DNA of 64,000 bases from an uncultured Rhodospirillales bacterium (GTDB taxonomy: Bacteria; Pseudomonadota; Alphaproteobacteria; RF32; CAG-239). The stretch lies in contig CACWLK010000001.1 in the NCBI GenBank assembly GCA_902761715.1, forward strand, positions 10,899-74,898, written 5' to 3'. The position numbers and the translations under genes are program-made. Under the pieces are notes generated by a model. That model made no database searches. It worked only from the letters and a program-made list of their open reading frames with translations, and was not told where the DNA came from. Positions 6,729 through 62,826 of the stretch are shown here, in pieces; the first letter of the stretch is position 1; every line of letters begins with the position of its first letter.

Positions 6729-6992
6729 CTACACAGCCATCAGCATTTCCTTAGTAGCGCGGGCCCGAGCGATATTCAGTGTTCTGCGGCGTTCCGAAGA
6801 GCGTGATTTGGTTACCACTCTTACTTTGCCGCCGGAGAAATCACATACCACTTTGCCGACCCGACGACCTTTGATATTTTTCCTTAGTTCATCAGAGATT
6901 CCGAAAGCGCTGACATACTTGTTGATCTTCTCTACTGGGGCAGTTGACATCATGTGCCATTCTTCTGCCATGTTTTTCTTTTTCTGTATCAT
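6729..6992 (-). CDS. hypothetical basic protein, 87 aa (SD-less cassette class)
   Basis: ORF with its own terminator. The leader CAATTAATTATTAAGATA-ATG has no SD. A later Met (MAEEW) is an alternative start. Confidence 0.5.
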   Translation of the reverse strand: MIQKKKNMAEEWHMMSTAPVEKINKYVSAFGISDELRKNIKGRRVGKVVCDFSGGKVRVVTKSRSSERRRTLNIARARATKEMLMAV

Positions 6993-7073
6993 TATCTTAA
7001 TAATTAATTGCGTGAGTATGGTTATCTCATATTTTTAGACAAAAGTCAACAACTTTTTGACAAATTAGACGCA

Positions 7074-7694
7074 TTATTTTATAAGTGCTTGAATCGGCTT
7101 ATAACTTTTTCTGTGTTCGGGAGTGATTCCGTACTTTTTTAACCCCTCAATGTGGCAGGCTGTCCCATAACCGGCATTTTTTTCAAAACCATAATAAGGA
7201 TATTTTTTAGCCATTTCTTTCATGATGCGGTCTCGATAGACTTTTGCCGCAATCGATGCCGCCGCAACCGACATTGATTTTGCATCTCCTTTTATCACAG
7301 TTTTTGTCTTGCATTTAAAGTTATTCGGCGTTCTGTTTCCGTCAATCAATGCAACATCGGGGCATTGAGGCAATTTATCGGTTGCGCGTTTCATTGCCAA
7401 AAATGTAGCCTGCAAAATATTCATTTCATCAATTTCACGGCAACTTGCCTCCCCGATACCTATATATAATTTTCCCTCTGCCTGTTCTCGCAAAAGTTCG
7501 TCATAAAGCATTTCTCGTTTTTTGGCTGACAGTTTTTTGGAATCATCAAGCCCGTCCAACAAAGTCTTTGACAGTTGCTTGTCCAAAATTACCACAGCTC
7601 CGGCCACAACCGGTCCTGCCCATGGTCCGCGCCCCGCCTCATCTATGCCGGCAACTAAACCGCTATACATATTTTCAAGTTCAAAATCAGGCAT
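7074..7694 (-). CDS. rnhB: ribonuclease HII
   Basis: GIDEAGRGPWAGPVVAGAVV motif. I moved the start to ATG 7694 (MPDFELE...), because the track ORF extends upstream. Confidence 0.85.
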   Translation of the reverse strand: MPDFELENMYSGLVAGIDEAGRGPWAGPVVAGAVVILDKQLSKTLLDGLDDSKKLSAKKREMLYDELLREQAEGKLYIGIGEASCREIDEMNILQATFLAMKRATDKLPQCPDVALIDGNRTPNNFKCKTKTVIKGDAKSMSVAAASIAAKVYRDRIMKEMAKKYPYYGFEKNAGYGTACHIEGLKKYGITPEHRKSYKPIQALIK

Positions 7695-7793
7695 ATTCCA
7701 ATCCTCTCTTGTGTATTTTGTACTTTCTGCCAGACCAAAAGTCAAATAAAAAAGCTCCGATTTCTCGGAGCTTTTAACTTGCACAGACCACAA

Positions 7794-8027
7794 TCAGCGA
7801 ATTGCCGGTTCGGTCATATCCTGACTGTTATAACGTTTTTTCATAACATCTGAAAAACGAGAAGCGCCGTCGCTAACGTTTGAAGTCCCTTTTTCAGTTG
7901 TTGTAACTGCTGATTTTGCCGCATTTAATGTTTTATAATACAGAGCCTTCGGTTCAATACCATATCCCCACCAAGCAACCGCAAAAATCAAAGCGATTAA
8001 TGTTGCAAAAGTAATTAACAATCTCAT
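7794..8027 (-). CDS. small membrane-anchored protein, 77 aa
   Basis: N-terminal TM segment MRLLITFATLIALIFAVAWWGYG, with GGGGAGGA upstream. Confidence 0.5.
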   Translation of the reverse strand: MRLLITFATLIALIFAVAWWGYGIEPKALYYKTLNAAKSAVTTTEKGTSNVSDGASRFSDVMKKRYNSQDMTEPAIR

Positions 8028-8086
8028 TATTCAATCCTCCCCAAATTATTTACGGATATTATTAAACCTTAAAATTAAAAAAATCT

Positions 8087-9574
8087 TTAATTTTTTACCT
8101 GTTTTATTCTTAAATTATTATCATACACATTTGCGGCTTTTCTAATCAAGCGGTCGCCTATCCCGTATTTAATCTTAAGCATATTTCGTGCTCCGATTTT
8201 ACGATCCAGAAACATTTGTGTTTTTCCGATTATATTGGCCAACACCCTGCCCGTAACCGGAATATCGATTTTTATATACTTATCCAACTTTACAAACTTA
8301 TATTTTCCGGTATAGGGATTATAAACTCGGAAACTGTAAAGCATTGAGCGCATCAATACATATTCTTTGCGCAACTCATCAAGTCCTTTTGCCACCGAAC
8401 TGAAACGCAGCAACCACTGCAACCTTTGTACAAGCTTTTCATAATGAGCATCTAAATTATAATCTGTCCAATATTTGAGTTTGGTATTCACCACAAAATC
8501 CAGATTACTCAAAAGCCGGTTTCGTTCCGCCTCACTGCGAGACGCCAACACTGCAAAACATTGTTCTTTCCTCGCCAATGCATCCCAATCATGATCATGC
8601 CAATATCGATCAATTCTGTCCAACGTTACTGCCAAATGCGCCGAACGCTCGTCCTCCACCAATATATAATAGCAATCAGCGGCCAGCAACGCCTTTGAAT
8701 TAGGTTTCAAGCATCTGTTTTCAAGCAATATCCTGTTTTTAAGATGATGATATTCGTGCACCATAACACTGCGATAGTCAGCATGCGTATCACGCAGCTC
8801 TGCATATGTTTTATAAAGACACGAGTACATAATTTGTGATTTTCTGTCTTTGCAAAATTTTCTGATAACTTCCACAAAAATCTCATTCGGCGTTTTTTCT
8901 CTGACAAACCACGATTTTTTGGCTTTCATACGCCGGTTCAACTCGTTGTCTATTCGTTTAATATAGTTCCAATCATCGGAATTAAAAATGTAACAATATT
9001 CCCCGATCATAATTTCCGAGCCGTGTGCCGAAATTTTTTTAATCTCGGATGTTGCCGGCGATATATCCACCCGATACATCACGCTGTTCCACTTAACAAA
9101 GTTTGACAGTACCGAGCGTTTAATCGAAATTCCCGTCTTTTTAAGCAACGGAGGAATATCTTTATCTCTCAAAACCACGGGGTCAGTTAGCACACCGGCC
9201 ACTTCCTTAGGCGCCGGATATGCAAATGCATTCTTAAAATTGCCGGAATTTATTATTCTTATTTCAAATTCATCTTCAAGTTGTTCGCGACCGACTTCCG
9301 TTTCGATAAAAAACACCAAATCCTGTGTCGCCTTAAAATCAACATCTGCCGCAATACGTTCAAAATTTTCCAGAGTATAAAATTGTAACGAATTTTGTGC
9401 TGCATATTGCTGACCGTTAAGTTTAGAGATTTTTTTCATGGTTGACCACGCATTGTAACGACAAAACTCATCAAACGAAATCTCGGCGAGTTTAGCCGCA
9501 GTCCATGCGTCAACTTCTCTTTTTACCACAAAAAAACTGCCATTTTTTCCGGCAACGACGTCCATCTCATACAC
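8087..9574 (-). CDS. hypothetical 495-aa protein with HExxH motif
   Basis: Long ORF. HEYHH is encoded at nt 8744-8758. I recognise no other family signature. Confidence 0.6.
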   Translation of the reverse strand: MYEMDVVAGKNGSFFVVKREVDAWTAAKLAEISFDEFCRYNAWSTMKKISKLNGQQYAAQNSLQFYTLENFERIAADVDFKATQDLVFFIETEVGREQLEDEFEIRIINSGNFKNAFAYPAPKEVAGVLTDPVVLRDKDIPPLLKKTGISIKRSVLSNFVKWNSVMYRVDISPATSEIKKISAHGSEIMIGEYCYIFNSDDWNYIKRIDNELNRRMKAKKSWFVREKTPNEIFVEVIRKFCKDRKSQIMYSCLYKTYAELRDTHADYRSVMVHEYHHLKNRILLENRCLKPNSKALLAADCYYILVEDERSAHLAVTLDRIDRYWHDHDWDALARKEQCFAVLASRSEAERNRLLSNLDFVVNTKLKYWTDYNLDAHYEKLVQRLQWLLRFSSVAKGLDELRKEYVLMRSMLYSFRVYNPYTGKYKFVKLDKYIKIDIPVTGRVLANIIGKTQMFLDRKIGARNMLKIKYGIGDRLIRKAANVYDNNLRIKQVKN

Positions 9575-9699
9575 CCTGTTGATACTACTAAAAATTTAGT
9601 AAATAAATTTAAAAACCGCAACAACTTATATTTTGGTATCCACAAGCCTTGACTATTAAAACATTATATGTTACTTTCCCCGAACTAATCCCTATTATT

Positions 9700-10506: not shown

Positions 10507-10519
10507 TGGTATCTCAAAC

Positions 10520-10548
10520 AAAAAAGACCGCCCAAAGCGGTCTTTTTG
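10520..10548. terminator. bidirectional Rho-independent terminator
   Basis: AGACCGC-CCAAA-GCGGTCT hairpin flanked by an A-run and a T-run, between convergent genes. Confidence 0.75.
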
Positions 10549-10552
10549 CTTA

Positions 10553-12079: not shown

Positions 12080-12152
12080 CTTCAAAATCTCCTCATTGTT
12101 TTTAATCATACAAACAATAAATTTGTTTGCAACAACAAAAAGAAAGACATTT

Positions 12153-13244: not shown

Positions 13245-13355
13245 AATTTTCTCCCTTTACCGGCAAAAATATCATCAAAAAAATCATTTTGACAAGCAAA
13301 AAATCTCCCCACCCCACACACCGCCAGATAGGAAGGGAAAACAACTTATAAGCAT

Positions 13356-14453
13356 CTATTTTGAAGTATTTCTTCTCAAAAATTCTTTTCTACATTTGTC
13401 ATAAACATCATCATTTGTTTCAAGTAACAAAATAGGTTTTAATGTACCGTATTGAAAAAAATGCTCCAATGATGAAGGCAGATTGTATATTTTTTCAACA
13501 TAATATTCAAAACTATTTCTAATTTGATAGTATATTATATCTTGATGATAATTTGTATTAAGATAATCTATACTCTTTCCTTTATCAGAAAGACTATCCC
13601 CAAATTTTACCACATTTATATCCTCAAAATCATCTTTATAATAAATCCAACAATACTCTGGTTGCACAATGAAATACCTACCATCATCAATATGACAACA
13701 ATACAATTCCATTAAAATGGTTTCATGGTATTTAAGATAAAGATTATCTTTACAAGTGATGCCAATAGACGTACTCCAATCATAAGTTCCTATATCTTGT
13801 ATATGATGAAATTTTATTGTAAATTCAGGAAAATCACTATAGTAATACACAGAATCTCCATCTATAGTGATAGACTGCCATTTTTCTGTATCCTGAATAT
13901 ATATAGATAATCTATCGAGGGGATTTAATGTTAAGCCAAAACGCTCTTGCCACATTTGAGCAATTTGATATTCTGAAGCCGTATTATTAATAGGCGTATT
14001 TACAGCACCATCTCTGGTATATATAACTCCAGCTCTAATAATTCTTTCTTTATTTTCTTTTCCAATAACTTTATCTTTTAATAAAAAATAAGGTTTATTT
14101 CTCATGTTTTTGATTATAATGACATCAACGCATCCTTCTTTTGTTTTTAATGATCGGATAAACGTTGTTGGTTTGATATTAAAATTCGAGTTTTGTATTA
14201 AATTGTGAATATTTTCTTCTGATTTTCGATTTGCATCATTTGATACATCTTTTATTTTCTTTGTTTTGTTCTCAATCCCAATTATTAAATACTTATCAGA
14301 ATCAGTACAAGAATTTGCCATACATAAAATATCATAAATTAACTCACCTGCATTGTGATACCATTCTTGTTTAAAGTCTAAATAGTCAGATTCTTCATGC
14401 GTTAAAAGACTATATAAATTTTCATCATTTGTGTATTGAGAATCATTTGTCAT
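13356..14453 (-). CDS. Schlafen/AlbA_2-domain protein with unassigned C-terminal half
   Basis: The N-terminus EESDYLDFKQEW...ANSCTDSDKYLIIGIENKT resembles the AlbA_2 (divergent AAA, Schlafen-type) fold. The ATG overlaps the upstream stop as ATGA. The gene is very AT-rich. Confidence 0.6.
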   Translation of the reverse strand: MTNDSQYTNDENLYSLLTHEESDYLDFKQEWYHNAGELIYDILCMANSCTDSDKYLIIGIENKTKKIKDVSNDANRKSEENIHNLIQNSNFNIKPTTFIRSLKTKEGCVDVIIIKNMRNKPYFLLKDKVIGKENKERIIRAGVIYTRDGAVNTPINNTASEYQIAQMWQERFGLTLNPLDRLSIYIQDTEKWQSITIDGDSVYYYSDFPEFTIKFHHIQDIGTYDWSTSIGITCKDNLYLKYHETILMELYCCHIDDGRYFIVQPEYCWIYYKDDFEDINVVKFGDSLSDKGKSIDYLNTNYHQDIIYYQIRNSFEYYVEKIYNLPSSLEHFFQYGTLKPILLLETNDDVYDKCRKEFLRRNTSK

Positions 14454-17400
14454 TCTACTCCTGCCTCATCAATTTGTTGCATGAGTTGGTTGGTTAGATA
14501 TAGAGCATTGATAATTTTTGCATAATGTTTAATATCATCAAAAGAAAGTTCCTTGTCTTTGCGGTCTTTGAGCCATTTTTGCGCCGGTTGGTAACCACCG
14601 ATATAAAAGTTCCAAGCGACTTCCGGAACGTTATCAAAATATTGCGTATCGTTGATATATACTTTACCTTCCGCAAAAACCAGTTTTGTTACAATGTTAT
14701 CGCCGCTTACCGGATAGCCGATGGCTAATGTATTCAGTTTATCGCTCTCAAGTAGATGAATCTTACGGATTTGCGAACCTAAATCAACCAATTTCCAGAA
14801 TTTTGCTTTATCTGCTGGGTAAGGCACTTTCGGAAAATCAATTTTTAAGAACTCTTTATAGGTTTCACGATATTTGGGTGAATGTAACACGGCATAAATG
14901 TAATCTAATACATCAATCGGAGCAAAAGTTTCCGGTTCTTCCGTTTTTTCTTCGGTAAACTTCAATTTTAACCCATCAGCAAACTTTTGAATAATTTTGC
15001 CATCAAAATTAGGATGCCGTGAATTATCTAAATCTTCATAGACATAAAGAGGAAAACCATAGCTAATTTCGCTTGTTTTGTTTGAAACTATTGAGGATTC
15101 AAAGCAATTATCACAAATAAAGACATGATGATATTCAGGAAAGGCCTTAAATTGTTTACACAACAGTAATCCTAAATTATCTCTATTGAGAAAATGTTTC
15201 ATAACTGCTTCACGTGGGCGTTCAATATAGGTGGTATCATAATAAACATATTTGTTATCAAATGGACGATATGTAACTGACTGTATTTTACTACTATCAG
15301 CCTCAATATTATAGTAAGATGCGACAGAAGATGAAAGTTCATCAACTGTTTCTTTTACAAGTATACTGTCTTTTGCCGTAACAATTCCAACATTATTTAA
15401 TTTAAATAATTCCGTAATACCAAAACCTTTATCATATTTCTTGGATAGTCCAAAGTCTTTCTTTACAAAGAAATAATATGGTGCTTGATGTTCCAATTTA
15501 TTGAAATCTATACCATTCAAGCTGTGTTCTGCCAAAAACTCGTACTTATTTTCTCTTTTACCATAAAGGTCACAATGATAGACCTCAGCAAGCTGTCCTT
15601 TTCTTTTGGCATTTGTTTTGATAAACAAATTGATGGAAACACCTTGCTGTATATCAAATACATTCTCATCTTTTGAGCCATCGGGACAAGTTTCTTTCTT
15701 TTTGGCGTTACCGTGTAAATCCAAAATATAGATTTTATCAAAAGTATTTAATAAATGCCAACGCATTCCTCTGAAAGTCGGATTATCTAAGAAACTATGA
15801 TTGTTAATATAAGCTAAAATTCCTGTATTGTTTTTTTCAATGAATTGTTCGGCATAGCGGATAAATTTAACATAGTCATCATTAATCCACTTAGGGTTCT
15901 TTTCTTGTAATTTTCCTCCCGTTGGCTCTTGCTTATAAACATCTATCAGATTTGTTATCCATTCACCTTTATTTGAACTTTCGCCACTATACGGTGGATT
16001 TCCTAATACAACCATTACCGGAACATCACGTTTAACTTCATTAGCCTCTTCTGCTTCTTGGGATAGCCAACTGGCGAACAAAGTTCCAGAGTCTGGGTGT
16101 GGTTCTTCTAAACTATTTGTCAGATAAACTTTCAAGCGGTCGTTTTGTGTTGCTTTATAACCGGTTTCTTTCAAAATCAAATCTAGCTTCAAATGTGCCA
16201 TGGCATAAGATGCCATTAAAATCTCAAAACCATGTAATCTCGGTAGTAAATGTTGTTCTACATAGCTTGACCACATTCCCTGCATTGGTATAAATTTCTC
16301 ATGAATTTGGCGAATAACTTCGGCTAAAAATGTTCCGGTTCCGGTGGCAGGGTCTAATATTTGAACACGATGTACTTCTTTTTCTTCTTTTTTAAATTTA
16401 TCCTTACTTTCATTTCGGAGAGTAATTTTTGTTTTTGATGTATCTGCTAATCCATCAGCCAAACCAAATTCATTCTTTAATATGTCGTCAACAGCCCGCA
16501 CAATAAAATTAACTACCGGTTGCGGTGTATACCAAACTCCGCGAGATTTACGAAGCTTTGGGTCATATTCGCTCAAAAAGGTTTCATAAAAGTGAATTAT
16601 CGGGTCTTGCGTTTTGGTTGCTTTACCAAAATCTTTCAAAATATCGTGCAAATTAACAGCAACAAAAACATCGGCTAAATCGTCAACAATCCATTTAATA
16701 CGGTCATCAAGTGTCGGACCTGCGATATAACTGAATAGATTTCGCAAAAAAGGATTAGACTTCGGTATGCACTCACAAGCCTCTTGTCTGGAAAAATTTT
16801 CTAATGATGTATCATTCAAACGTCCGGCGAACATACCATAGGCAATAGTTTGTGCGTAAACATCTGCAAATTCTTCTTTAGATATATCACTAATCAATAT
16901 CTTTTGAAATGCAGTCATTTGGTCTTGAAGGGTTCGGTTATCATAACTGTTATCATTACTATTTAAGGCATTTTTTATAACATCAGCCAACAATCTGGCT
17001 TTTCCTGCCATCATTTTAGCCAACTTTGAAGCAGAATGTATTGTCTGTCCTCTATAAGCACAGAAATTAACAATTAAGTCATTAAATTCTTGAAAACGCT
17101 CTGTATTGGCGACAACTTTGCCGTTTTCTATATGACCAATACGAACTGTTGTAACTTTTTCTCCATCCCGATAAAAACGAAATTCAAGATAGTTCGTAAT
17201 AATAAGATTGTTTAAACTGTTACGATAACGGTCAAATTGCTCTTTATGATTTTTATTATCTAAATCATCATCAAGGTCTTTAGCTTCAATATATCCAAGT
17301 GGAATATTATTTTTGGTAATAACATAATCAGGTGCTCCACACGAGATACGAGCAGGCTCATTAGTCGCAATAATGCCTGTTACGAGCTTTTCTATTAAGG

Positions 17401-17488
17401 TTTGTAAGTCTCCGCGATATGAATGTTCCCGCGATATTCCGGTTTTATATCTTTTGTTAATTTCGTTAATATAGTCCGCTATAGGCAT
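14450..17488 (-). CDS. single-chain Type IIG-like restriction-modification enzyme (nuclease + gamma-class N6-adenine methylase + TRD)
   Basis: D54-X13-E68-A-K70 (GAPDYVITKNNIPLGYIEAKD), then ILDPATGTGTFL (motif I), then LGNPPYSG (motif IV). The C-terminal region resembles the Type ISP/YeeA-like specificity end. Confidence 0.8.
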   Translation of the reverse strand: MPIADYINEINKRYKTGISREHSYRGDLQTLIEKLVTGIIATNEPARISCGAPDYVITKNNIPLGYIEAKDLDDDLDNKNHKEQFDRYRNSLNNLIITNYLEFRFYRDGEKVTTVRIGHIENGKVVANTERFQEFNDLIVNFCAYRGQTIHSASKLAKMMAGKARLLADVIKNALNSNDNSYDNRTLQDQMTAFQKILISDISKEEFADVYAQTIAYGMFAGRLNDTSLENFSRQEACECIPKSNPFLRNLFSYIAGPTLDDRIKWIVDDLADVFVAVNLHDILKDFGKATKTQDPIIHFYETFLSEYDPKLRKSRGVWYTPQPVVNFIVRAVDDILKNEFGLADGLADTSKTKITLRNESKDKFKKEEKEVHRVQILDPATGTGTFLAEVIRQIHEKFIPMQGMWSSYVEQHLLPRLHGFEILMASYAMAHLKLDLILKETGYKATQNDRLKVYLTNSLEEPHPDSGTLFASWLSQEAEEANEVKRDVPVMVVLGNPPYSGESSNKGEWITNLIDVYKQEPTGGKLQEKNPKWINDDYVKFIRYAEQFIEKNNTGILAYINNHSFLDNPTFRGMRWHLLNTFDKIYILDLHGNAKKKETCPDGSKDENVFDIQQGVSINLFIKTNAKRKGQLAEVYHCDLYGKRENKYEFLAEHSLNGIDFNKLEHQAPYYFFVKKDFGLSKKYDKGFGITELFKLNNVGIVTAKDSILVKETVDELSSSVASYYNIEADSSKIQSVTYRPFDNKYVYYDTTYIERPREAVMKHFLNRDNLGLLLCKQFKAFPEYHHVFICDNCFESSIVSNKTSEISYGFPLYVYEDLDNSRHPNFDGKIIQKFADGLKLKFTEEKTEEPETFAPIDVLDYIYAVLHSPKYRETYKEFLKIDFPKVPYPADKAKFWKLVDLGSQIRKIHLLESDKLNTLAIGYPVSGDNIVTKLVFAEGKVYINDTQYFDNVPEVAWNFYIGGYQPAQKWLKDRKDKELSFDDIKHYAKIINALYLTNQLMQQIDEAGVE

Positions 17489-17598
17489 TGTATTTCCTTT
17501 TCGTTATCTATTATGCCCGGATTTTATCCTAATTCCCCTTAAAATCAAGTTAATTCTCCCTCCCACTATATTTTTCCCCACCTGCTCAAAAAAAATCC

Positions 17599-26224: not shown

Positions 26225-26277
26225 CTTTTAACAGGAAAACACTTTGTATTATATAACGCTGCCTGATGAGGTCAAAT

Positions 26278-34291: not shown

Positions 34292-34303
34292 TTTATAAAA
34301 TAC

Positions 34304-34337
34304 AAAAGAGCCTGTTGCACATGCAAGAGGCTCTTTT
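34304..34337. terminator. long hairpin terminator
   Basis: AAAGAGCCTGTTGCA / TGCAAGAGGCTCTTT forms a stem of about 15 bp with one mismatch, flanked by A- and T-runs. Confidence 0.75.
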
Positions 34338-34353
34338 ATGAATAGACGTCGGA

Positions 34354-34494
34354 TCATTTCGTAATTTTTTTACGCTTTTTGTGTTCTCTGATGTTGTCGC
34401 CAATTCCTTCAAACAAAATCCACAGGACACCACATACGTAAATGAACATTATTACCGGCAATGCGATAATTTCGAATACGTCAGGTTTTTTCAT
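34354..34494 (-). CDS. small hydrophobic protein, 46 aa (below the ORF-track cutoff)
   Basis: My translation is MKKPDVFEIIALPVIMFIYVCGVLWILFEGIGDNIREHKKRKKITK. It is bracketed by a near-consensus promoter and a strong terminator. Confidence 0.4.
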   Translation of the reverse strand: MKKPDVFEIIALPVIMFIYVCGVLWILFEGIGDNIREHKKRKKITK

Positions 34495-34526
34495 ATAATT
34501 AATAAAAAATAACGGGTTATGCAGCG

Positions 34527-34554
34527 ATTATACACTAATATATTTTTTTGTCAA
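34527..34554 (-). promoter_or_regulatory. predicted promoter TTGACA-16-TATAAT
   Basis: Both hexamers are consensus on the minus strand, directly upstream of the 46-aa ORF. Confidence 0.5.
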
Positions 34555-34590
34555 ACAGAAAAGCTCCCCACCCGAAGGTGAGGAGCTCAA
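34555..34590 (-). terminator. Rho-independent terminator of the 327-aa gene
   Basis: GCTCCCCAC-CCGAAG-GTGAGGAGC hairpin with one mismatch, and a T-rich tail on the minus strand. Confidence 0.65.
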
Positions 34591-34612
34591 AGAACTTGTC
34601 TTTACCGAACGA

Positions 34613-35596
34613 CTAGAGCCCGAGAGCTTCTGCCGGAGTGGGATAACCCCCTCTTTCCAGCTTGGCTCTGATTTCTTTGTTGAAGACATAGTCACCATTG
34701 GTATCATACATGTCATCAACGCTGATCCCTTTGTACGAATACATCGGGAAGTCAAGCAGCTCGTCCACGCTCAGGTCATTGTTCCACAACGCCTGAAGTA
34801 CATAGAAGTACTGCTTGGGCTCATCACCAGTGGTCCGATCTTCAATCTTCAGCCATTTGCCTGCCTCTTCGAGGTTTCCCTCATTAACCTTCGCCAGGAA
34901 GGTAGAGTTAGCAAATCTGCGTCCGCCCATGCGCATAGCTGCCAATGTAACGACAACCATTTGCTTGTTTGTCAGCTTGACTTCAGAGTTGAGGTGGTTC
35001 AAAACCAACGGGCGCCAATCCTGAGCTACGACATCAACAGACTCCTCATAGGTCAGCCCGCTGAAATCGTACTCGGTAACCGGCTTGTCGTTGATAAACT
35101 TGAAGCCGACCAAGGCACGAGGACAATCTTCATCAACACTCTCCTGCACACCATCAAGGTACGCACGAACGGTTACGACATTGTCAAAAGCCTCGTCATA
35201 GACGACCTCAGGCATATCGGCAAACCCGCTTTTCATTGAATTCGAACAGCTGTGCCAAAGTGCCACAATCAGCAGCACAAGAACAACGGCCGCCCCGATC
35301 CAGTGCCAAGCATTCTCCTTTTTTCGTTCTGCGGCGGGGTCATCGGGCGCTGTGCGCTTGAAAAGACCGGTAAACCAGTCCCAAAATAGCACCAGCCATC
35401 CCCACACGATAAAGCCGAAAGGCTTCAGCGCATGGCTCCACAACCACACCAGCCCATCCACCAGATAAGATCCGAGGACGTACAGCAGAATGAAGGGAAA
35501 GCACAGAATCAGGAGCAGCACCTTCAGGTTGTAGTTGATAGTTAACGAACCCTGCCACCAGTTTTTGCCGGTGTTAAAAGAAAAGATCTTCTTCAT
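34613..35596 (-). CDS. multi-TM protein with lysozyme-like C-terminal domain (tentative)
   Basis: About three Trp-rich TM segments at the N-terminus. LTNKQMVVVTLAAMRMGGRRFANSTFLAKVNEGNLEEAGKWL resembles the helix pattern of GH24-type lysozymes. The coding sequence is GC-rich. Confidence 0.45.
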   Translation of the reverse strand: MKKIFSFNTGKNWWQGSLTINYNLKVLLLILCFPFILLYVLGSYLVDGLVWLWSHALKPFGFIVWGWLVLFWDWFTGLFKRTAPDDPAAERKKENAWHWIGAAVVLVLLIVALWHSCSNSMKSGFADMPEVVYDEAFDNVVTVRAYLDGVQESVDEDCPRALVGFKFINDKPVTEYDFSGLTYEESVDVVAQDWRPLVLNHLNSEVKLTNKQMVVVTLAAMRMGGRRFANSTFLAKVNEGNLEEAGKWLKIEDRTTGDEPKQYFYVLQALWNNDLSVDELLDFPMYSYKGISVDDMYDTNGDYVFNKEIRAKLERGGYPTPAEALGL

Positions 35597-35635
35597 AGAA
35601 AAAATAATTAAATTAATAACTCAGTGAACAGACCA

Positions 35636-35664
35636 ATTATAGCCCATTTTTGTTTTTTTGTCAA
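35636..35664 (-). promoter_or_regulatory. predicted consensus promoter TTGACA-17-TATAAT
   Basis: Both hexamers and the spacing are consensus on the minus strand, upstream of 34613-35596. Confidence 0.55.
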
Positions 35665-46470: not shown

Positions 46471-46510
46471 AACAAAAAACGGATTGTTTTTTGATAAACA
46501 ATCCGTTTTT
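46471..46510 (-). terminator. Rho-independent terminator of the 77-aa gene
   Basis: AACGGATTGTTT-TTTGAT-AAACAATCCGTT forms a 12-bp stem, with T-runs on both strands. Confidence 0.8.
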
Positions 46511-46530
46511 CCTTCACAATAATAACCGTT

Positions 46531-46764
46531 TCAGCGAAAGAGGATAATCTTTCCTTCATGAGGGCTTCCTTCAATCAAGACTTCATCTCCTTCTTTCAAA
46601 AGGTAACGTCGAGCACCGTCTTGAGGATATTCAAAGGTTCTGTACACGCCTCCAAACAACAACACGACATTTTTGCTCTTAATTTCTCCCGTTTCGGGAT
46701 CGGTATAAATAGCATGCTGAGCTCTCAACACCCTATACCATTTTTTGTTTTTTTCGTCATCCAT
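46531..46764 (-). CDS. hypothetical protein, 77 aa (SD-less cassette class)
   Basis: ORF bracketed by its own promoter and terminator. The leader is TTTTAATTATTGATAGATT-ATG. Confidence 0.5.
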   Translation of the reverse strand: MDDEKNKKWYRVLRAQHAIYTDPETGEIKSKNVVLLFGGVYRTFEYPQDGARRYLLKEGDEVLIEGSPHEGKIILFR

Positions 46765-46792
46765 AATCTATCAATAATTAAAATACCCGTTG

Positions 46793-46821
46793 GTTATACA
46801 AATCAGTCCTCAGGCTGTCAA
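46793..46821 (-). promoter_or_regulatory. predicted promoter TTGACA-17-TATAAC
   Basis: Read by eye on the minus strand. Confidence 0.5.
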
Positions 46822-52492: not shown

Positions 52493-52574
52493 TAACTGTC
52501 TCCTAAATTTTTGCTTTTCACAAACCTAAAAGTAATATACATTACAAAAGATAAAATAGTAAAGGAATAAATTT

Positions 52575-54424: not shown

Positions 54425-54457
54425 AAAAGACCGCATTTTAATTGCGGTCTTTTTTTA
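54424..54457. terminator. bidirectional terminator
   Basis: AGACCGCA-loop-TGCGGTCT hairpin flanked by an A-run and a T-run. Confidence 0.8.
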
Positions 54458-54462
54458 TTTGA

Positions 54463-55941: not shown

Positions 55942-56012
55942 TTTTTCTCTCCTGTAAATCAAAAAACTCATACTAGGCTAATGCAAAAATTTTCTTTTTA
56001 CAAGAGTATAAA

Positions 56013-56055
56013 TAAAAAAAGAGGAGTTCGTTTCAACGAACGAACCCCTCTTTTT
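56013..56055 (-). terminator. terminator of the M16-like gene
   Basis: Imperfect nested hairpin (GTTCGT/ACGAAC inner stem, GAGG/CCTC outer stem). The forward A-run becomes a minus-strand T-run. Confidence 0.55.
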
Positions 56056-56080
56056 ACAAAAGTCCAAATTAGTTACGATC

Positions 56081-57265
56081 TTACAGTTTGCTCTGTACTT
56101 CTGCATACGAGTAGCACTTCTGTCGTGCATACACCACATAGGTTAGTGGTTTGGAGAAAATGTCTTCGGAAATATCCCGAACATCTCTTGCCGTAACACG
56201 CCAGGTCGCGTTAATACGCTCGTTGATGTCGTACATCTCCCCACGGCCCAGCACCTGCCAGGAAATCTCCACAGAACGATCTTGCGGTTGTGAGAACATG
56301 AACAACTTTTCGGCCATAGCGCAGTTGCGGGAGGTCTCCATACGACGATCTGATGCCAGCTCTGTACGCAGACGGTGAACATTGTAGCAGATGATATCCG
56401 TAAACTTATCGACATCATCTTCTTGGCGCGATGCTACAGAAACACGCAGAGTGCGCAATCCGTAGTAGCCTGCAATCTTCACCTCAAGGTCAACGTTCAT
56501 GCCGATAAAGGCTCGTTCGAGACGACCTTTCAGCATACTCATCATAACATTGGCTTCAGCTGCGTTGTGCAGATTCGAGACGTCCCACCCCAACATCACT
56601 TGACGATATTCGTCAGGGGCATGCATCTTGGCAAAGCCGCCGGTGTAGAACTCGTTGTAAACCTTGCGTTTCCGTCCTGCGGGTATATCCCCGAAGAACT
56701 TCTCGGCAAGCTCCTTGATGTAGCCGATCTTATCTTCCATACCTACACCGGAAATTGCAAAAACAATGTTCTTTCCGGTCAGGAAGGTATCGGCAAAACA
56801 CCTCAAATCTTCCGCATCATAGCTCTGTACGGCGCTAATGTAGACATCAGCATCCCACACCTTATTGGCATTGCCGAAAGCAGTATGCTTATACAGCAAA
56901 CGCATTTGGCGGTCAGGCAAAGGAGCTCGATCACGCGTGTGTTCGGCAATGTCATTAGCAACATCGTCCACCACCTCTTGGCGAAAATCACGGAACTTTG
57001 CCAGTTGAGCAAGCTTCTCCATCGTGGTTTCAAGCTGGCTAGTCGCACATCTACACCCGGTCAGATACGAAGTAATGGTTCCGCCATACACAGCCTGCAC
57101 TCCGGCAAACTCTCTGGTTAACACTTGCTCGAACAAACCGGCCATTCCCAAATCGGGCTCATTCACGTGTCCGACATTAACAGTCAGAGACATACTCAGC
57201 TCACTGCCGACGTTAGACACGACAACCGTAAGCCCATTCTTCAGCTTAAAATTTCTTTCGTCCAT
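56081..57265 (-). CDS. M16 (pitrilysin)-like protein lacking the zinc ligands
   Basis: FKLKNGLTVVV...VNVGHVNEPDLGMAGLFEQVL, where active M16 enzymes have G.AHFLEHM. GC-rich, SD-less leader, own promoter and terminator. Confidence 0.5.
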   Translation of the reverse strand: MDERNFKLKNGLTVVVSNVGSELSMSLTVNVGHVNEPDLGMAGLFEQVLTREFAGVQAVYGGTITSYLTGCRCATSQLETTMEKLAQLAKFRDFRQEVVDDVANDIAEHTRDRAPLPDRQMRLLYKHTAFGNANKVWDADVYISAVQSYDAEDLRCFADTFLTGKNIVFAISGVGMEDKIGYIKELAEKFFGDIPAGRKRKVYNEFYTGGFAKMHAPDEYRQVMLGWDVSNLHNAAEANVMMSMLKGRLERAFIGMNVDLEVKIAGYYGLRTLRVSVASRQEDDVDKFTDIICYNVHRLRTELASDRRMETSRNCAMAEKLFMFSQPQDRSVEISWQVLGRGEMYDINERINATWRVTARDVRDISEDIFSKPLTYVVYARQKCYSYAEVQSKL

Positions 57266-57318
57266 AACTTGGAATAAAGTTTAGTTAATAATATAATTAA
57301 AAATCACGAAGTGCTGTC

Positions 57319-57347
57319 GTTATACACCTCGTGATTTTTATTGTCAA
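57319..57347 (-). promoter_or_regulatory. predicted promoter TTGACA-17-TATAAC with flanking 11-nt inverted repeat
   Basis: Boxes read on the minus strand. AAATCACGAAG (57301-57311) and CCTCGTGATTT (57327-57337) bracket the -10 box. Confidence 0.5.
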
Positions 57348-57364
57348 TATTTTTGTCAAAAAAA

Positions 57365-58027: not shown

Positions 58028-58083
58028 AATTTACCTCTCTTTTGCCCGATTTTAGCAGTCCCGAAAATTTAAGTCAATCGGAA

Positions 58084-58123
58084 TAAAAAAAAGACCCCTG
58101 CCACCGGCAGAGGTCTTTTTTTT
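58084..58123 (-). terminator. Rho-independent terminator of the 249-aa lipoprotein gene
   Basis: AGACCCCTGCC-ACC-GGCAGAGGTCT hairpin flanked by A8 and T8. Confidence 0.8.
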
Positions 58124-58139
58124 GTTGTTTAGCTCAAAA

Positions 58140-58889
58140 CTAAAGTTTTTTCGCTTTTAGGATGCTGTTCGGAAATAGCGTATAAACGCTATAAACGAAC
58201 CTGTCGCCCGGAGCCGGAACAAAGTCTATGTTGTTTGGTGTAACAAACAATAGCTTCTGTCCGGTGGTAACAATGCACCAATACGATTGCGGCAAGATGG
58301 GGATGTTGGTACACATCTGGATCGGGAAAGTTCCATAAACCTCGGCCTCGATCGGATCGCTTGCCACGAGTTTGCTTCCCAAATCGGGATACTCATTCTC
58401 GTTAGCTCCCTCACCACCGTTGTAATTGTGCCCGTTAATCTGCTCAATTTCATTTTCGCAGAACGATGAAACCGTAAAATAAATCTCATCTCCGACATGT
58501 AAATCATACGGATAGCGGTAACGCAACACGTAGTAGTATTTACCATTGTTGCAACGCATGACATAGGCAGGGAACGGGAACATGATTGATCTCTTGATTA
58601 CGCATTCCCAAATATGGGTAATTTTGTACGTAACCTGACCACCATTGCCGCCGGTGTTGCCACCATTGTTTCCGCCGGTGTTACCACCATTGTTGCCGCC
58701 GTTGTTGTTACCGTTGTCGCCGGTGTTGTTACCGTTGTTATTATCGTTGCCATTGTTGTCACGATGACCGCGATTGTTATATTCGTAACGATAGTCATCC
58801 CACGGATCATTATCAGGCTCACAAGCGCTCAAGACGCAAATTGCTGAAACCATCAGCAAAAGAACAAAAAAGATTTTTCTCTTCTTCAT
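58140..58889 (-). CDS. lipoprotein with Gly/Asn low-complexity linker
   Basis: MKKRKIFFVLLLMVSAICVLSAC lipobox followed by the acidic EPDNDPWDD, then GNNGGNTGGNNGGNTGGNGG repeats. Confidence 0.65.
   Translation of the reverse strand: MKKRKIFFVLLLMVSAICVLSACEPDNDPWDDYRYEYNNRGHRDNNGNDNNNGNNTGDNGNNNGGNNGGNTGGNNGGNTGGNGGQVTYKITHIWECVIKRSIMFPFPAYVMRCNNGKYYYVLRYRYPYDLHVGDEIYFTVSSFCENEIEQINGHNYNGGEGANENEYPDLGSKLVASDPIEAEVYGTFPIQMCTNIPILPQSYWCIVTTGQKLLFVTPNNIDFVPAPGDRFVYSVYTLFPNSILKAKKL
58639..58700. repeat. about 2.6 copies of a 24-bp tandem repeat inside the lipoprotein gene
   Basis: GGTGTTGCCACCATTGTTTCCGCC (58653-58676) and GGTGTTACCACCATTGTTGCCGCC (58677-58700), preceded by a partial copy. Confidence 0.85.
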
Positions 58890-58927
58890 ATAAAAAAAAT
58901 TAAGTTAATAATACACAAAACGGTCAT

Positions 58928-58956
58928 ATTATACTATTTTTGTCTAAAAATGTAAA
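58928..58956 (-). promoter_or_regulatory. predicted promoter TTTACA-17-TATAAT
   Basis: Read by eye on the minus strand, upstream of 58140-58889. Confidence 0.5.
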
Positions 58957-59036
58957 TAAAAAAATAAAACCCGGCAGAAACCATTTTTTTACTTATCGAT
59001 TATATAATAACTGACATTATTGTATTGGAGTGTAAA

Positions 59037-60212
59037 ATGATTACCGAAACCTGTTTCCATAATGCCACTTTGTTGAACGGATACTCCGCTATGCCTAACT
59101 GCGGCGTACTCATCAAACAACACAAAATTATTGACGTTTTCAACGAGGCTCGTTTTAAGCAAAAAAAATTCAAACCCGGAACCAAGTTTTATGATTTAAA
59201 AGGTGCCTACATTGCTCCCGGTTTTATTGATACTCACATTCATGGTATTGGTGGTTTTGGTACTGACGATATGAGCGCTGAATCAATCCTCAAAATGTCA
59301 GAGATTTTGCCCCGATACGGAGTTACCTCTTTTATCCCGACACTGTATTCTGCCCCAAAAGACAAACTTTTCAAAGCAATGATTAGCATTCAAAAAGCCA
59401 TGGGGCATGAAAAAGGTGCTAAAATTTTGGGTATGCATTTAGAGGGACCGTTTATTTCTCCCGAGCGCCTCGGCGTTCAAACTCCCGATTCTATCTCTCC
59501 TGTCGACCTTGAATATATGAAAGAGATTATCTCCGTCGGACAAGGCAATATTATTAATATGACACTTGCTCCCGAACTTAAAGGCATGAGAGAGTTGGCT
59601 CTTATGTGTATTGACCAAGGCATTATTTTGCAGGCCGGTCATACCAACGCTACATATCAGCAAATGGTGGAGGCCATGCAGGCTCGCATAATGCATGTAA
59701 CCCACCTGTTTAATGCCATGAGCCGTATGCATCACCGTGACCCCGGTGTGGTCGGTGCCGTGTTTATTCATCCCGAGCTTTCCTGTGAAATCATTGCCGA
59801 CGGGGTACACATCAACCCCGATATTGTCAAATTTTTATTTCGTTGTAAGCCGATTGATAAAGTCGTTCTGGTTACCGATTCGCTAAAACCGACCAAACAA
59901 AAAGCCAAACACCTATACGCCAACGGCGAAGAAGTCTACCTTGACAAATGTTTTCTGCGTAAATCCGACAACGTTATTGCCGGCTCCGCCCTAACCATGA
60001 TTGAAGGTGTTAAAAACCTCGTTTCTTTCGGACTTCCGATTGAGCAGGCTGTGCAAACGGCAGCATATAATCCGGCAACCATAATGAAACAAGAACACCT
60101 TGGGTTGATAGCCCCCGGCTACGATGCAGACTTGACAATTTTTGATAAAAACTTCAAAGTACTTAAGACCATAATTAAAGGACAAACATTTAATAAAGGA
60201 ACCGGCAAATGA
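59037..60212 (+). CDS. nagA: N-acetylglucosamine-6-phosphate deacetylase
   Basis: [23 protein letters not shown] and HLFNAM motifs. I placed the start at ATG 59037, behind GGAG. Confidence 0.85.
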
Positions 60213-60991
60213 GAGTAATCATTAAACCTGACTATGAAAATGTATCTGTCTGGGCAGCGCAATATATTGCTAACCGAATCAACAAATTTGCCCCCACCTC
60301 GGATCACCCCTTTGTCTTGGGTTTGCCAACCGGCTCTACCCCTCTCGGGGTATATCGTGAGCTGATTAAAATGTATCAGCAAAACAAAGTTTCTTTTGCC
60401 AACGTCATTACCTTTAATATGGACGAGTATGTAGGTTTGCCTGCCGACCATCCGCAAAGTTATCACTACTTTATGTTTGAAAACTTCTTCAACCACATTG
60501 ATATCAAAAAAGAAAACATTCATATTTTGAACGGCATGGCTAAAGATATTGAAAAAGAATGTGCCGATTATGAAAAATCCATTCTCGCCTGCGGAGGAAT
60601 TGAGCTGTTTTTAGGTGGCATCGGCGAGGACGGACATATTGCTTTTAACGAGCCGTTTTCCTCCCTATCCTCTCGCACTCGTATCAAAACTCTGACTTCT
60701 GATACAATCAAAGTCAACTCACGCTTTTTTAATAACGACATCACACAAGTACCAACCACGGCAATGACCGTCGGTGTCGGTACAATTATGGATGCACGAG
60801 AAGTTATGATACTTGCCAATGGTAACAAAAAAGCCAAAGCGGTTTATCAAGGCATTGAAGGAGCCATCAGTCACAAATGGACAATTACCGCCCTGCAAAA
60901 TCACAAACACGGCATAATTGTCTGTGATGATGCCGCCGCTTCTTTGCTTGCCCCCGAAACCATAAAATATTTTAAAGATATCGAAAGATAA
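60209..60991 (+). CDS. nagB: glucosamine-6-phosphate deaminase
   Basis: FNMDEYVGL and [13 protein letters not shown] motifs. ATGA overlap with nagA. Confidence 0.9.
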
Positions 60992-61050
60992 ATTTGTTTA
61001 ATAATTCCTCTTTTCCTTATATTTGCTTAGCATTTACCTCGTTTTTAATA

Positions 61051-61079
61051 TTGACAAAAAAATATTTTTTGGCTAATAT
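61051..61079 (+). promoter_or_regulatory. predicted promoter TTGACA-17-TAATAT
   Basis: Read by eye, upstream of 61115. Confidence 0.5.
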
Positions 61080-61114
61080 CCGGTTCGAAAAGTATCATTA
61101 ACATTATTATTCAT

Positions 61115-61582
61115 ATGGAAAAAGTCAGATGCTATGTTGACAACCGACTTTTTATTGTCAACACCCCTGCCCGACAAAAGGCTATTGTAAATGTTCTCTT
61201 GGACGACACGGTTGAAATTGCTTTTTTTGAGCCCATTGCTCATAATCAGGATTTCTTTGCCGCGCACGCACACCGTTTCATCTGGAGGTGGTCCAATTAC
61301 CATTACTTCAAGAGCTGTTTTCCTTCGGCCGAAACTTGTCTGTTAGCAAACCAAGACCTGACAACTCCTGTCTTCTGGGGATGCTACACCTCGTCTCGTG
61401 CTAATGCCGAAAGCAAGAACCCGTCATGGATTACTCTTAATGACGACGGTCTCTGCACCTCCGAGCCCAACTTTTGCGTGCCCAATGTTTATGGTGCACT
61501 GTATATGCCACTCACTCAATTCCGCCTCATTAACCGCAATTTTGACGTGAATGACTATCTGTTCTCTTCCACTCGGGTTTAA
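61115..61582 (+). CDS. hypothetical protein, 155 aa
   Basis: GC-rich ORF with an SD-less leader and no family signature. The antisense 76-aa ORF (61073-61303) is judged spurious. Confidence 0.5.
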   Translation: MEKVRCYVDNRLFIVNTPARQKAIVNVLLDDTVEIAFFEPIAHNQDFFAAHAHRFIWRWSNYHYFKSCFPSAETCLLANQDLTTPVFWGCYTSSRANAESKNPSWITLNDDGLCTSEPNFCVPNVYGALYMPLTQFRLINRNFDVNDYLFSSTRV

Positions 61583-61615
61583 CCCTATTTATTTATCTAA
61601 AAAACAAAAACTTAG

Positions 61616-62113
61616 ATGAAGAAGATTATTGTTCTTATCATTCCTTTGATGATTAGCGTATCATCATTCGCTCAAACTTGTGCAGTTTATTACAGTGCTA
61701 CAGTGCGTGGTGGCTACAATGTTCTTGCCAACCAGCCCACTGCCGACGTAACCGTAACCAACGATCGTGACAACCTTCGTTGCAAAATCGAATTTGGCAT
61801 GGGAACATTGCCTGCAGTCGCCGGTAATCAAACATCGCGTTTTGTTTACGTCAATCCCGCACTCGGCTTTATTTTTGGCGGGCGCAACGCCTACTATGTC
61901 CTGGCCGGTGCGACCTCGTGGAGAAAATATCCTTCTCCATATCAAAACAACGTTATTGATGACTGTTGGCGGCTCAAGTTTGACAGCGGTATTGAATTCA
62001 GGATTAATGACCTGCTCTTCTGGAATGTGGAGGCATCTTATATTCCCTCCCGCAAGTCTGACGGAGAATGTCAGTATCTTGCCCTCAAGACCGGCATCGG
62101 CTTCAATTTCTGA
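61616..62113 (+). CDS. small outer-membrane beta-barrel-like protein
   Basis: Signal peptide MKKIIVLIIPLMISVSSFAQT, alternating hydrophobic strands, and a C-terminal GIGFNF ending in Phe. Confidence 0.55.
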   Translation: MKKIIVLIIPLMISVSSFAQTCAVYYSATVRGGYNVLANQPTADVTVTNDRDNLRCKIEFGMGTLPAVAGNQTSRFVYVNPALGFIFGGRNAYYVLAGATSWRKYPSPYQNNVIDDCWRLKFDSGIEFRINDLLFWNVEASYIPSRKSDGECQYLALKTGIGFNF

Positions 62114-62132
62114 GTTTTATCCCTACAAAAAT

Positions 62133-62168
62133 AAGCCCAGCTCTCAAGAGTTGGGCTTATTTCTTTCT
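62133..62168 (+). terminator. Rho-independent terminator
   Basis: AAGCCCAGCTC...GAGTTGGGCTT hairpin followed by a T-rich run. Confidence 0.7.
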
Positions 62169-62220
62169 ACGTGATCCGTACGGCTTCCAACTATGCCTTA
62201 AATATACAAAAAAAATTCAA

Positions 62221-62249
62221 TTGACAAAAAAGACATAATGTGATACAAA
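62221..62249 (+). promoter_or_regulatory. predicted promoter TTGACA-17-TACAAA
   Basis: Read by eye, upstream of 62305. Confidence 0.4.
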
Positions 62250-62304
62250 ATGCCCTACACGAGAGTTATTAAGCGATTATTTTCATTTTTAACATTACAA
62301 AACA

Positions 62305-62727
62305 ATGTTACGAATTAAAGCAAACGAGAAACCGGTAATCATTGCCGTTTTGCGAGATCCCGAACACAGGTGCAGAATTGACTTTGGATGCTACGACCCC
62401 GACATCGTTTCAGAAACGATTGCATGCATTCGTACCACGCATCCCAACGGTAGCCAATCCTACCTCAAGCTCACTCCGGCCAAAGACGTTGACAACAACC
62501 TTTGCCTGAAGAAAGAGCCCTTGCAGTACAACCGCACCATGGTCTCATGGGAGTGCCTTGCTGGCAACGTACTGGAGTTCGATGAAGGATCATTCCTTGT
62601 TACGCGCATGAACGACATCCACAATGACCGCCCGCTGATTATCCTGGCCGAAGGCGAGACCAACTGGGAATACACCCCTGCTACCATGGTCAAGCATCAC
62701 ATTGGGCTCATTTTGCCGCCTCAGTAA
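62305..62727 (+). CDS. hypothetical protein, 140 aa
   Basis: GC-rich ORF with an SD-less leader and its own terminator. Confidence 0.5.
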   Translation: MLRIKANEKPVIIAVLRDPEHRCRIDFGCYDPDIVSETIACIRTTHPNGSQSYLKLTPAKDVDNNLCLKKEPLQYNRTMVSWECLAGNVLEFDEGSFLVTRMNDIHNDRPLIILAEGETNWEYTPATMVKHHIGLILPPQ

Positions 62728-62749
62728 GCGCTTAACAACCGCATACCCC

Positions 62750-62784
62750 AGCCTCAACTCACTAGAGTTGGGGCTTATTTTTTT
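62750..62784 (+). terminator. Rho-independent terminator
   Basis: AGCCTCAACTC-ACTA-GAGTTGGGGCT hairpin followed by T-rich TATTTTTTT. Confidence 0.75.
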
Positions 62785-62826
62785 ACCAAATTTTATATAT
62801 TCGATGCTAAGCTTGTAGAGTAAAAG

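Follow-up and report, generated by a model that had tools for sequence, protein, structure and literature searches.

The stretch of DNA analysed here, 64,000 nucleotides (nt) of contig CACWLK010000001.1 from an uncultured Rhodospirillales bacterium (hereafter the window), has a GC content of 41% and carries an F-type ATP synthase operon, priA, dxs, nagAB and a Type ISP restriction enzyme; several metagenomes hold strains near-identical to it. Scattered among these genes lie eight short transcription units, each with its own promoter and terminator, whose leaders are rich in A and T, lack a Shine-Dalgarno (SD) sequence and share a short A/T string that we call the box. In the following list promoter scores, where available, are matches to the 12 consensus positions, offsets are the distances from the -10 hexamer to the start of the box, ORF denotes an open reading frame, aa amino acids and GC3 the GC content at third codon positions.

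6666-7049, minus strand: unit 1, with promoter TTGACT-17-GATAAC at 7021-7049, leader 6993-7020, an 87-aa ORF at 6729-6992 (GC3 0.52) and terminator 6666-6692.
6997-7004, minus strand: box of unit 1, ATTATTAA, overlapped by TTAATTAT at 7000-7007; it starts 16 nt past the -10 hexamer.
34302-34554, minus strand: unit 2, with promoter 34527-34554 (12/12), leader 34495-34526, the ORF of a 46-aa membrane peptide at 34354-34494 and terminator 34302-34337.
34499-34505, minus strand: TTATTAA of unit 2, starting about 21 nt past the -10 hexamer and out of phase with the other units.
34553-35664, minus strand: unit 3, with promoter 35636-35664 (12/12), leader 35597-35635, the ORF of a 327-aa membrane-anchored lysozyme-like protein at 34613-35596 (GC3 0.62) and terminator 34553-34588.
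35613-35619, minus strand: box of unit 3, (G)TTATTAA, offset 15-16, with a second copy, TTAATTAT, at 35604-35611.
46473-46821, minus strand: unit 4, with promoter 46793-46821 (11/12, C in the last -10 position), leader 46765-46792, a 77-aa ORF at 46531-46764 (GC3 0.40, not raised) and terminator 46473-46510.
46774-46781, minus strand: box of unit 4, TTAATTAT / ATTATTGA, offset 14.
56014-57347, minus strand: unit 5, with promoter 57319-57347 (11/12, C in the last -10 position) and a second -35 at 57350-57359, leader 57266-57318, the ORF of a 394-aa M16-like protein at 56081-57265 and terminator 56014-56055.
57285-57300, minus strand: boxes of unit 5, ATTATTAA at 57285-57292 and TTAATTAT at 57293-57300.
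58085-58956, minus strand: unit 6, with promoter 58928-58956 (11/12), leader 58890-58927, the ORF of a 249-aa lipoprotein at 58140-58889 and terminator 58085-58123.
58905-58912, minus strand: box of unit 6, ATTATTAA, offset 15.
61051-62167, plus strand: unit 7, of two genes, with promoter 61051-61079 (10/12), leader 61080-61114, a 155-aa ORF at 61115-61582, a 165-aa signal-peptide/barrel-like ORF at 61616-62113 and terminator 62129-62167.
61097-61111, plus strand: motifs of unit 7, ATTAAC at 61097-61102 and ATTATTATT at 61103-61111, both kept in the related locus L196.
62221-62784, plus strand: unit 8, in a strain-variable segment, with promoter 62221-62249, leader 62250-62304, the ORF of a 140-aa orphan at 62305-62727 and terminator 62746-62784.
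62266-62281, plus strand: boxes of unit 8, (G)TTATTAA at 62266-62272 (offset 15) and a second ATTATT at 62276-62281, the same in locus L074.

The leaders and ORF coordinates quoted in a first-pass annotation of the window were all confirmed, as were the near-consensus promoters, which reach 10/12 to 12/12 where scored, and the hairpin followed by a T-run that closes each of the eight units. That annotation had credited the 87-aa locus with only a weak promoter candidate, and one could be placed at 7049-7021. The exact string TTGACAAAAA is found five times in the window against 1.1 expected, each time upstream of a gene of this class; with one mismatch allowed, its window-wide count is at chance. 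When promoters were ranked by their own score, every intergenic promoter of at least 11/12 in the window proved to feed an SD-less A/T leader of this class, and this ranking, made without the motif, guards against loci having been picked for it.

As claimed before, none of the eight leaders has an SD, their duplex free energies with the anti-SD (-0.4 to +3.0 kcal/mol) indicating no pairing, and the comparators named there do pair: flavodoxin at -5.6, the MBL gene at -8.6 and the Type ISP/IIG gene at -5.8 kcal/mol. Most other window genes carry GGAG or AGGA at the usual spacing, with values of -5 to -11. The 16S 3' end was sought, and no rRNA gene was present in the sequences examined. About 40% of the window genes are SD-less, as are, by a strict or a loose criterion, 18% or 45% of the 947 genes examined in relatives; therefore a missing SD is not special to these loci, and its frequency fits the alphaproteobacterial precedent (PMC4117421). 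The 33-nt intercistronic spacer of unit 7 (61583-61615), before the 165-aa gene with its signal peptide and C-terminal Phe, is likewise A/T-rich and SD-less, so that this mode of initiation also occurs at an operon-internal start.

What sets the class apart is the box. TTATTAA occurs in six of the eight leaders, where dinucleotide shuffles of the same leaders give 0.5, and in 500 shuffles no 7-mer of any sequence was found in more than five leaders, a comparison that allows for the post-hoc choice of the motif. The enrichment proposed earlier was thus borne out against a composition-matched background, the exception to the shared strings being the leader at 61115, which has only ATTAAC and ATTATTATT in place of the exact box strings. 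Across the whole window the counts of TTATTAA and TTAATTAT are at chance and, therefore, the enrichment is positional. Once the leaders are aligned on the -10 hexamer the shared string becomes ATTATT(A/T)A, usually with a G within the 1-2 nt before it, and its start peaks 14-16 nt past the hexamer (range to 17), about +8 to +10 of the predicted transcript. In a set of 2141 promoter-like sites TTATTA starts 13 and 15 times at offsets 15 and 16, over a background of 2-3 per position, and the reverse complement of TTATTA has no positional peak at the same sites. A motif-independent class, defined by a promoter, an ATG-initiated ORF within 18-75 nt, A/T richness and lack of an SD (n=89 sequences), gave peaks of ATTATT, TTATTA and TATTAA at the box offset and none of TTTTTT, AATTTT or TTTTAA. 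With a single random member taken per family, ATTATT lies at offsets 13-17 in 10 of 25 cases against 5.4 expected (p=0.03), and 12 of the 45 families carry the box. A second copy of ATTATT often follows 10-12 nt downstream of the first, although the periodicity of the direct repeat is a broad hump of 9-17 nt with no sharp peak; the distance from the box to the ATG is not fixed and runs from 4 to 39 nt.

The box and the SD exclude each other. None of 64 SD-bearing promoter-proximal leaders (0/44 families) has the box, against 47 of 116 non-SD leaders (14/53 families). The genes that carry it fall into about 15 unrelated families, which include M16-like proteins, lipoproteins, an M29 peptidase, a carrier protein and many of unknown function. 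A function search with the nine products of the window in Pfam, NCBIfam and PHROGs returned Peptidase_M16_C as its only significant match, together with a weak lysozyme match, and revealed no common theme. A composite scan of IMG/VR for promoter plus box gave more than 120 single scattered matches and was uninformative.

The same design is conserved in related bacteria. For the M16-like protein about 190 homologues were retrieved, the few with a source name being labelled Alphaproteobacteria, and a scan of species-representative genomes located 63 M16-like loci, 62 of them titled Alphaproteobacteria, proteobacteria or alphaproteobacterial genera and one Bacteroidaceae; the titles include metagenome-assembled genomes (MAGs) of Alphaproteobacteria, 'uncultured Azospirillum sp.' and Candidatus Scatocola. 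Their sources are the guts of ruminants, humans, mice and chickens, and the organism of the window is accordingly taken to be an uncultured gut alphaproteobacterium. The odd one, L015 (CAVIWQ010000102.1), is a 3.2-kb contig labelled 'Bacteroidaceae bacterium' that bears an alphaproteobacterial M16-like gene with the typical promoter and leader, and it was probably mis-binned. Orthologues of this gene in about 60 species, at 35-66% protein identity (no more than 64% in any species representative), keep the TTGACAAA promoter and its upstream layout, namely TTGACA(AA), 17 nt, TATAnn, some 15 nt containing G/C and then an A/T-only SD-less leader. Orthologues of the lysozyme-like protein were found at 48% identity in L011 and L013, ATTATTAA recurs at an unchanged offset before the lipoprotein orthologues of L016, L019-L022 and L026, and the homologue of the 77-aa protein in L018 has a box leader. 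The lipoprotein itself (58140-58889) has a Gly/Asn-rich low-complexity stretch at codons ~30-85, after the lipobox, and varies in length by strain, with 249 aa here and 271 aa in L001; elsewhere only the C-terminal ~165 aa are conserved.

The products of units 7 and 8 have a narrower distribution, homologues of the 140-aa and 165-aa proteins being found only in close relatives. For the 140-aa orphan a single homologue was recovered among 5.8 billion clusters, and its 81% homologue has a different neighbour. Compared with L074, the ratio of nonsynonymous to synonymous substitution rates (dN/dS) of this gene is 0.10 at a synonymous divergence (dS) of ~1.1, and its promoter and leader are 86% identical against 42% at synonymous sites. 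The 155/165-aa pair, compared with L196, has dN/dS of 0.14 and 0.11 at a dS of ~1.9-2, and its promoter and leader are ~83% identical. In three families the leader is more conserved than synonymous sites, and an identity of 83-86% where these are saturated suggests that it is under purifying selection. L196 also encodes a distant, 113-aa homologue of the orphan behind TTGACA-17-TATATT, with ATTATTTA at offset 16 and a GC3 of 0.61 next to neighbours of 0.29-0.32. Some units are accessory, but within the clade's own gene pool.

The coding sequences (CDSs) had been described as GC-richer on the basis of hand counts, and this holds at third codon positions, where the median is 0.517 in the class and 0.397 in other genes (Mann-Whitney p=5e-5), and fails at first and second positions (GC1, GC2), which are equal; moreover, two of the nine ORFs, 46531 at 0.40 and 34354 at 0.43, are not GC3-rich. 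Codons shift toward NNC/NNG (TTC 0.50 vs 0.18, AAG 0.55 vs 0.19, ATA 0.04 vs 0.19). The M16-like gene exceeds the median GC3 of its locus in 47 of 60 species, and the slope of its GC3 on that of the host is 0.47, so that it is held near 0.5 while the genomes span 0.26 to 0.65. Likewise, the 140-aa homologue in L074 has a GC3 of 0.48 and the neighbouring gene 0.32. The excess is clear in the M16 family and among genus-level relatives; in box genes of distant relatives at large it is weak (+0.036, p=0.06). A generic signature of high expression is ruled out as the cause by HU (0.29) and the atp genes (0.38-0.42), and a consequence of the missing SD by the normal GC3 of other SD-less window genes. 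The raised and 'buffered' GC3 would rather mark a separate synonymous-site regime coupled to this mode of expression, and it may come from selection on the mRNA or from exchange within the clade.

A second, start-proximal pattern accompanies the box. Before the ATG, the frequency of A in the class is 0.53-0.61 at -14 to -11, 0.52 at -6 and 0.53 at -3, with about 0.3 elsewhere, and T occupies -1 in 87% of cases; the pattern persists with one gene per family and M16 excluded (A 0.67 at -11). The leaders are A/T-only after about +9. RNAalifold found no conserved pairs in 21 orthologous leaders, and an Rfam scan returned tRNAs as the sole matches, with no family for the leaders. A structured riboregulator (riboswitch, thermometer or leader-peptide attenuator) was rejected on these grounds. 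The first 70 nt of the CDSs are predicted to be more structured than those of other genes (p=9e-4).

Architecture, phasing, strand specificity, conservation and mutual exclusion with the SD are directly supported by these comparisons. Conservation of the design across the whole clade argues that it is old, a second and native way of expressing genes and not imported DNA. Our leading hypothesis, which we hold tentatively and at a little below an even chance, is that the loci are native, clade-conserved and insulated units, mostly of a single gene, with SD-independent AU-rich leaders probably of the S1 type. A near-consensus promoter of the sigma-70 type (TTGACA, often an A-run, N17, TATAAn) would yield a short mRNA with a leader of 20-50 nt, in which the first ~8 nt would contain G/C and the remainder be purely A/U. 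At about +9 would come the AUUAUU(A/U)A box, in many cases repeated ~11 nt further on; SD pairing would be lacking, and the AUG would be preceded by an A-rich patch at -14 to -11, by A at both -6 and -3 and by U at -1. Ribosomal protein S1 would be the most likely means by which the 30S subunit is recruited, without SD/anti-SD pairing, to this single-stranded AU-rich leader, and the box would serve as an enhancer or as a standby site. As a leader free of G offers no competing start codon, initiation would fall on the first AUG, and the strong intrinsic terminator would close the unit. The lack of SD in box leaders together with the start-proximal A/U pattern tips the balance toward translation. 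The earlier suggestion of a shared 5'-leader element, with S1-dependent initiation among several options, thus stands as regards the class and its element, and S1-type initiation appears to be the mechanism that fits best.

Several observations weigh against this interpretation. The exact 7-mer is not enriched in the relatives' non-M16 SD-less leaders (3/27 vs 2.1 expected; the shorter ATTATT reaches 10/27 vs 3.9), the core is short and degenerate, its position weight matrix carrying little information outside ATTATT, and the family-level phasing test gives only p=0.03. The '+9' position of the box depends on promoter prediction, and because the box is fixed to the promoter and not to the ATG, a polymerase-level or 5'-end-linked role fits equally well. 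The predicted accessibility of the start region is the same as in other genes, so that an unstructured start is not a distinguishing feature. HU is normally highly expressed, and here its gene has an SD and a GC3 of 0.29. Other SD-less window genes have neither the box nor a raised GC3 and, therefore, SD-independence alone does not explain the codon shift.

Comparison with known systems helps to place the class. In Flavobacterium johnsoniae, experiments have shown that A residues at -3, -6, -12 and -13 ('Kozak-like') promote initiation without an SD (Baez et al. 2019, PMC6847099). Initiation regions of this Bacteroidetes type resemble those described here in lacking an SD, in their A/U-rich leader, in A at -14 to -11, -6 and -3 and in the lack of alternative starts, and a role of S1 has been proposed for them. 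They differ in that about 55% of the genes here use an SD (GGAG/AGGA at the usual spacing), and since the host ribosome also uses SD sequences, two initiation modes coexist in one genome. They also differ in the TTGACA/TATAAT promoters, the ATTATT(A)A box phased to the predicted transcript start and the strong U at -1 that are seen here. The likeness, which resides in A at -3, -6 and -11 to -14 of the initiation region, is one of mechanism and does not point to common ancestry.

The 'epsilon' sequence of T7 gene 10 reads UUAACUUUA, and both UUAACUUAAUU in unit 6 and UUAACUAAACUUUA in unit 5 resemble it. In E. coli and its phages, translational enhancers that are A/U-rich and depend on S1 are well documented, as are ribosome standby sites (PMC2176067, PMC4611024, PMC5934652). 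The E. coli enhancers normally assist an SD, whereas here they would replace it, and the 5'-end-fixed position and the clade-wide conservation are features of the present class only. In Caulobacter crescentus, also an alphaproteobacterium with many SD-less leadered mRNAs, 75.4% of the CDSs have no SD and are translated as well as those with one, and no sequence motif was found in their leaders (Schrader et al. 2014, PMC4117421); by contrast, the class studied here combines a box of defined position with an A patch, is coupled to near-consensus promoters and has a GC3 of its own.

SD-independent initiation is widespread, yet almost no defined sequence signal for it has been described outside Bacteroidetes. 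Here a motif, an A patch, a promoter type and a codon shift come combined and are kept in about 60 uncultured species alongside SD-led genes. Should the box act at the ribosome, it would be a short signal, open to test, that determines SD-less initiation in Proteobacteria, and the units could provide a ready-made, strong and insulated expression module for gut bacteria that have no genetics. For annotation, gene callers that rely on the SD will misplace these starts or miss the genes, and screens for foreign DNA based on GC3 will wrongly flag them. A bolder version, which we consider doubtful, is that the clade runs two parallel expression systems, one classical and SD-led, the other joining a consensus promoter, the 5'-end-phased AUUAUU(A/U)A box and a codon regime of its own (GC3 ~0.5 whatever the genome drift); a dedicated factor or ribosome feature would then read the box as a lineage-specific substitute for the SD.

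It is conceivable, if unlikely, that the box is a downstream promoter element which acts on RNA polymerase, tuning promoter escape through the A/T-rich +9 to +16 region or promoter-proximal pausing, either sigma-70-dependent at -10-like TATTAT/TATTAA or of the NusG type at TTNTTT. Such an element would account well for a box that keeps its distance from the -10 hexamer to within ~2 nt while its distance from the ATG varies, that accompanies the best-matching promoters, is specific to the non-template strand and mirrors the -35 in position, with the -10 as the centre. It would also account for the -10-like strings, since some boxes read TATTAT, with the A2 and T6 of a -10 hexamer. The commonest forms, however, are TATTAA or TTATTA without T at position 6, and T at the last position of the -10 consensus matters for sigma binding; nor is TTATTA a full TTNTTT. 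A purely transcriptional role gives no reason to avoid SD leaders (0/64), and the start-proximal A/T pattern and the absent SD point to translation. The mirror arrangement can be seen at 34499-34554 and at 58912-58946, where the -35 with its A-run, read as its reverse complement, partly matches the box region (TTTTTTATTAA vs the reverse complement of TTGACAAAAAA, 82%); boxes generally lie at this position, which may be a real symmetry or mere A-runs facing T-runs.

We find it quite unlikely that the box is the site of one trans-acting regulator governing a regulon, be it a repressor just past the start site, such as a tandem-binding response regulator, or a small RNA (sRNA) or Hfq-type factor on the mRNA. 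A motif common to some 15 unrelated gene families, a second ATTATT that often lies about one helical turn downstream, leaders conserved above synonymous sites and the many envelope or clade-specific products of unknown function would all suit a regulon. Nevertheless, a degenerate core of only 6-8 A/T bases would give poor specificity in a genome of 41% GC, the box is not palindromic and, by eye, no Fur/PerR-like 7-1-7 symmetry is consistently seen, the functions are mixed (M16-like, M29 peptidase, carrier protein, lipoproteins, orphans) and neither a candidate regulator nor a complementary sRNA was identified. A CtrA promoter was rejected as well: TTAA-N7-TTAAC has no match in the window, and such TTAAC half-sites as occur are found past the start site, variably spaced.

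The first-pass annotation had also considered horizontally acquired cassettes, perhaps from an SD-poor donor such as Bacteroidota, under a MucR-type AT-tract silencer. Unit 8 does lie in a 1.5-kb segment missing from a sister strain, its 81% homologue is differently flanked, related species hold different small genes downstream of nagB, and the units are self-contained and differ in composition from their neighbours. Nonetheless, this explanation is now very improbable and, for the conserved units, largely refuted. The M16-like, lipoprotein, lysozyme-like and 77-aa families are clade-conserved, with orthologues behind the same promoter and leader in related Alphaproteobacteria MAGs, and the proteins searched have no homologues outside close relatives or the clade. 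The GC excess is confined to synonymous sites, with GC1 and GC2 unchanged, and GC3 stays high across saturated divergence (47/60 species; 0.48 vs 0.32 in L074); the CDSs are GC-richer, the opposite of typical silencer targets, and the shift is at the wrong codon positions. The TTGACA/TATAAT promoters are of proteobacterial type, not that of Bacteroidota. No product matched a phage family (PHROG). The most foreign DNA of the window by composition is instead a restriction-modification island, an AT-rich segment at 13356-17488 (GC 0.27-0.35, GC3 0.18-0.27) that encodes the 1012-aa Type ISP restriction-modification enzyme and a 365-aa protein, both with an SD. Phage morons are autonomous promoter-gene-terminator inserts of deviant composition, and the units resemble them in having their own promoter and terminator, one or two genes and a deviant composition, unit 8 being in addition strain-variable; unlike morons, they lie outside prophages, among housekeeping neighbours (atp, priA, nagAB), have no significant PHROG matches and are in several cases syntenic across species.

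That there is no specific element at all, the strings having arisen by chance in A/T-only, T-biased intergenic DNA and the loci having been picked for them, would agree with the chance-level window-wide counts of TTATTAA and TTAATTAT, the lack of 7-mer enrichment in the relatives' other SD-less leaders and a weight matrix poor outside ATTATT, but is scarcely credible when leader shuffles never reach the observed count with any 7-mer, the class is recoverable by promoter score alone, the peak is sharp, strand-specific and lacking for other A/T hexamers, SD leaders are free of the box and, in three families, leader conservation exceeds that of synonymous sites.

Some further features of these loci deserve mention. 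The strain-variable segment at 62162-63698 (1.5 kb), which comprises the 140-aa unit and a 292-aa gene of low GC (GC3 0.30), is shared by L002 and L004 but missing from the sister strain L001, and its left edge falls within the terminator of unit 7 (62129-62167). This terminator and that of unit 8 (62746-62784) have alike stems and tails, ...GAGTTGGG(G)CTTATTT.... The small genes that follow nagB differ in related species, L196 having an additional one of 156 aa and L198 two of 148 and 90 aa, and this region has the look of a local accessory-gene hot spot. The M16-like promoter contains a 27-nt inverted repeat whose centre is the -10 (57287-57351, 78% complementary; core ATCACGAGG...CTTCGTGAT at 57303-57335), and in L011, L013 and L040 the -10 is likewise flanked by ATCAC...GTGAT arms; the repeat may serve the upstream hexapeptide-repeat gene as a terminator that overlaps the promoter, or it may be a gene-specific operator. 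Finally, the 41-nt gap before a 114-aa gene at 26266 contains two promoter-like sites, at 26248-26275 on the minus strand (11/12) and at 26228-26257 on the plus strand (10/12); the latter leaves a leader of ~1 nt, so that the mRNA of the 114-aa gene may be leaderless.

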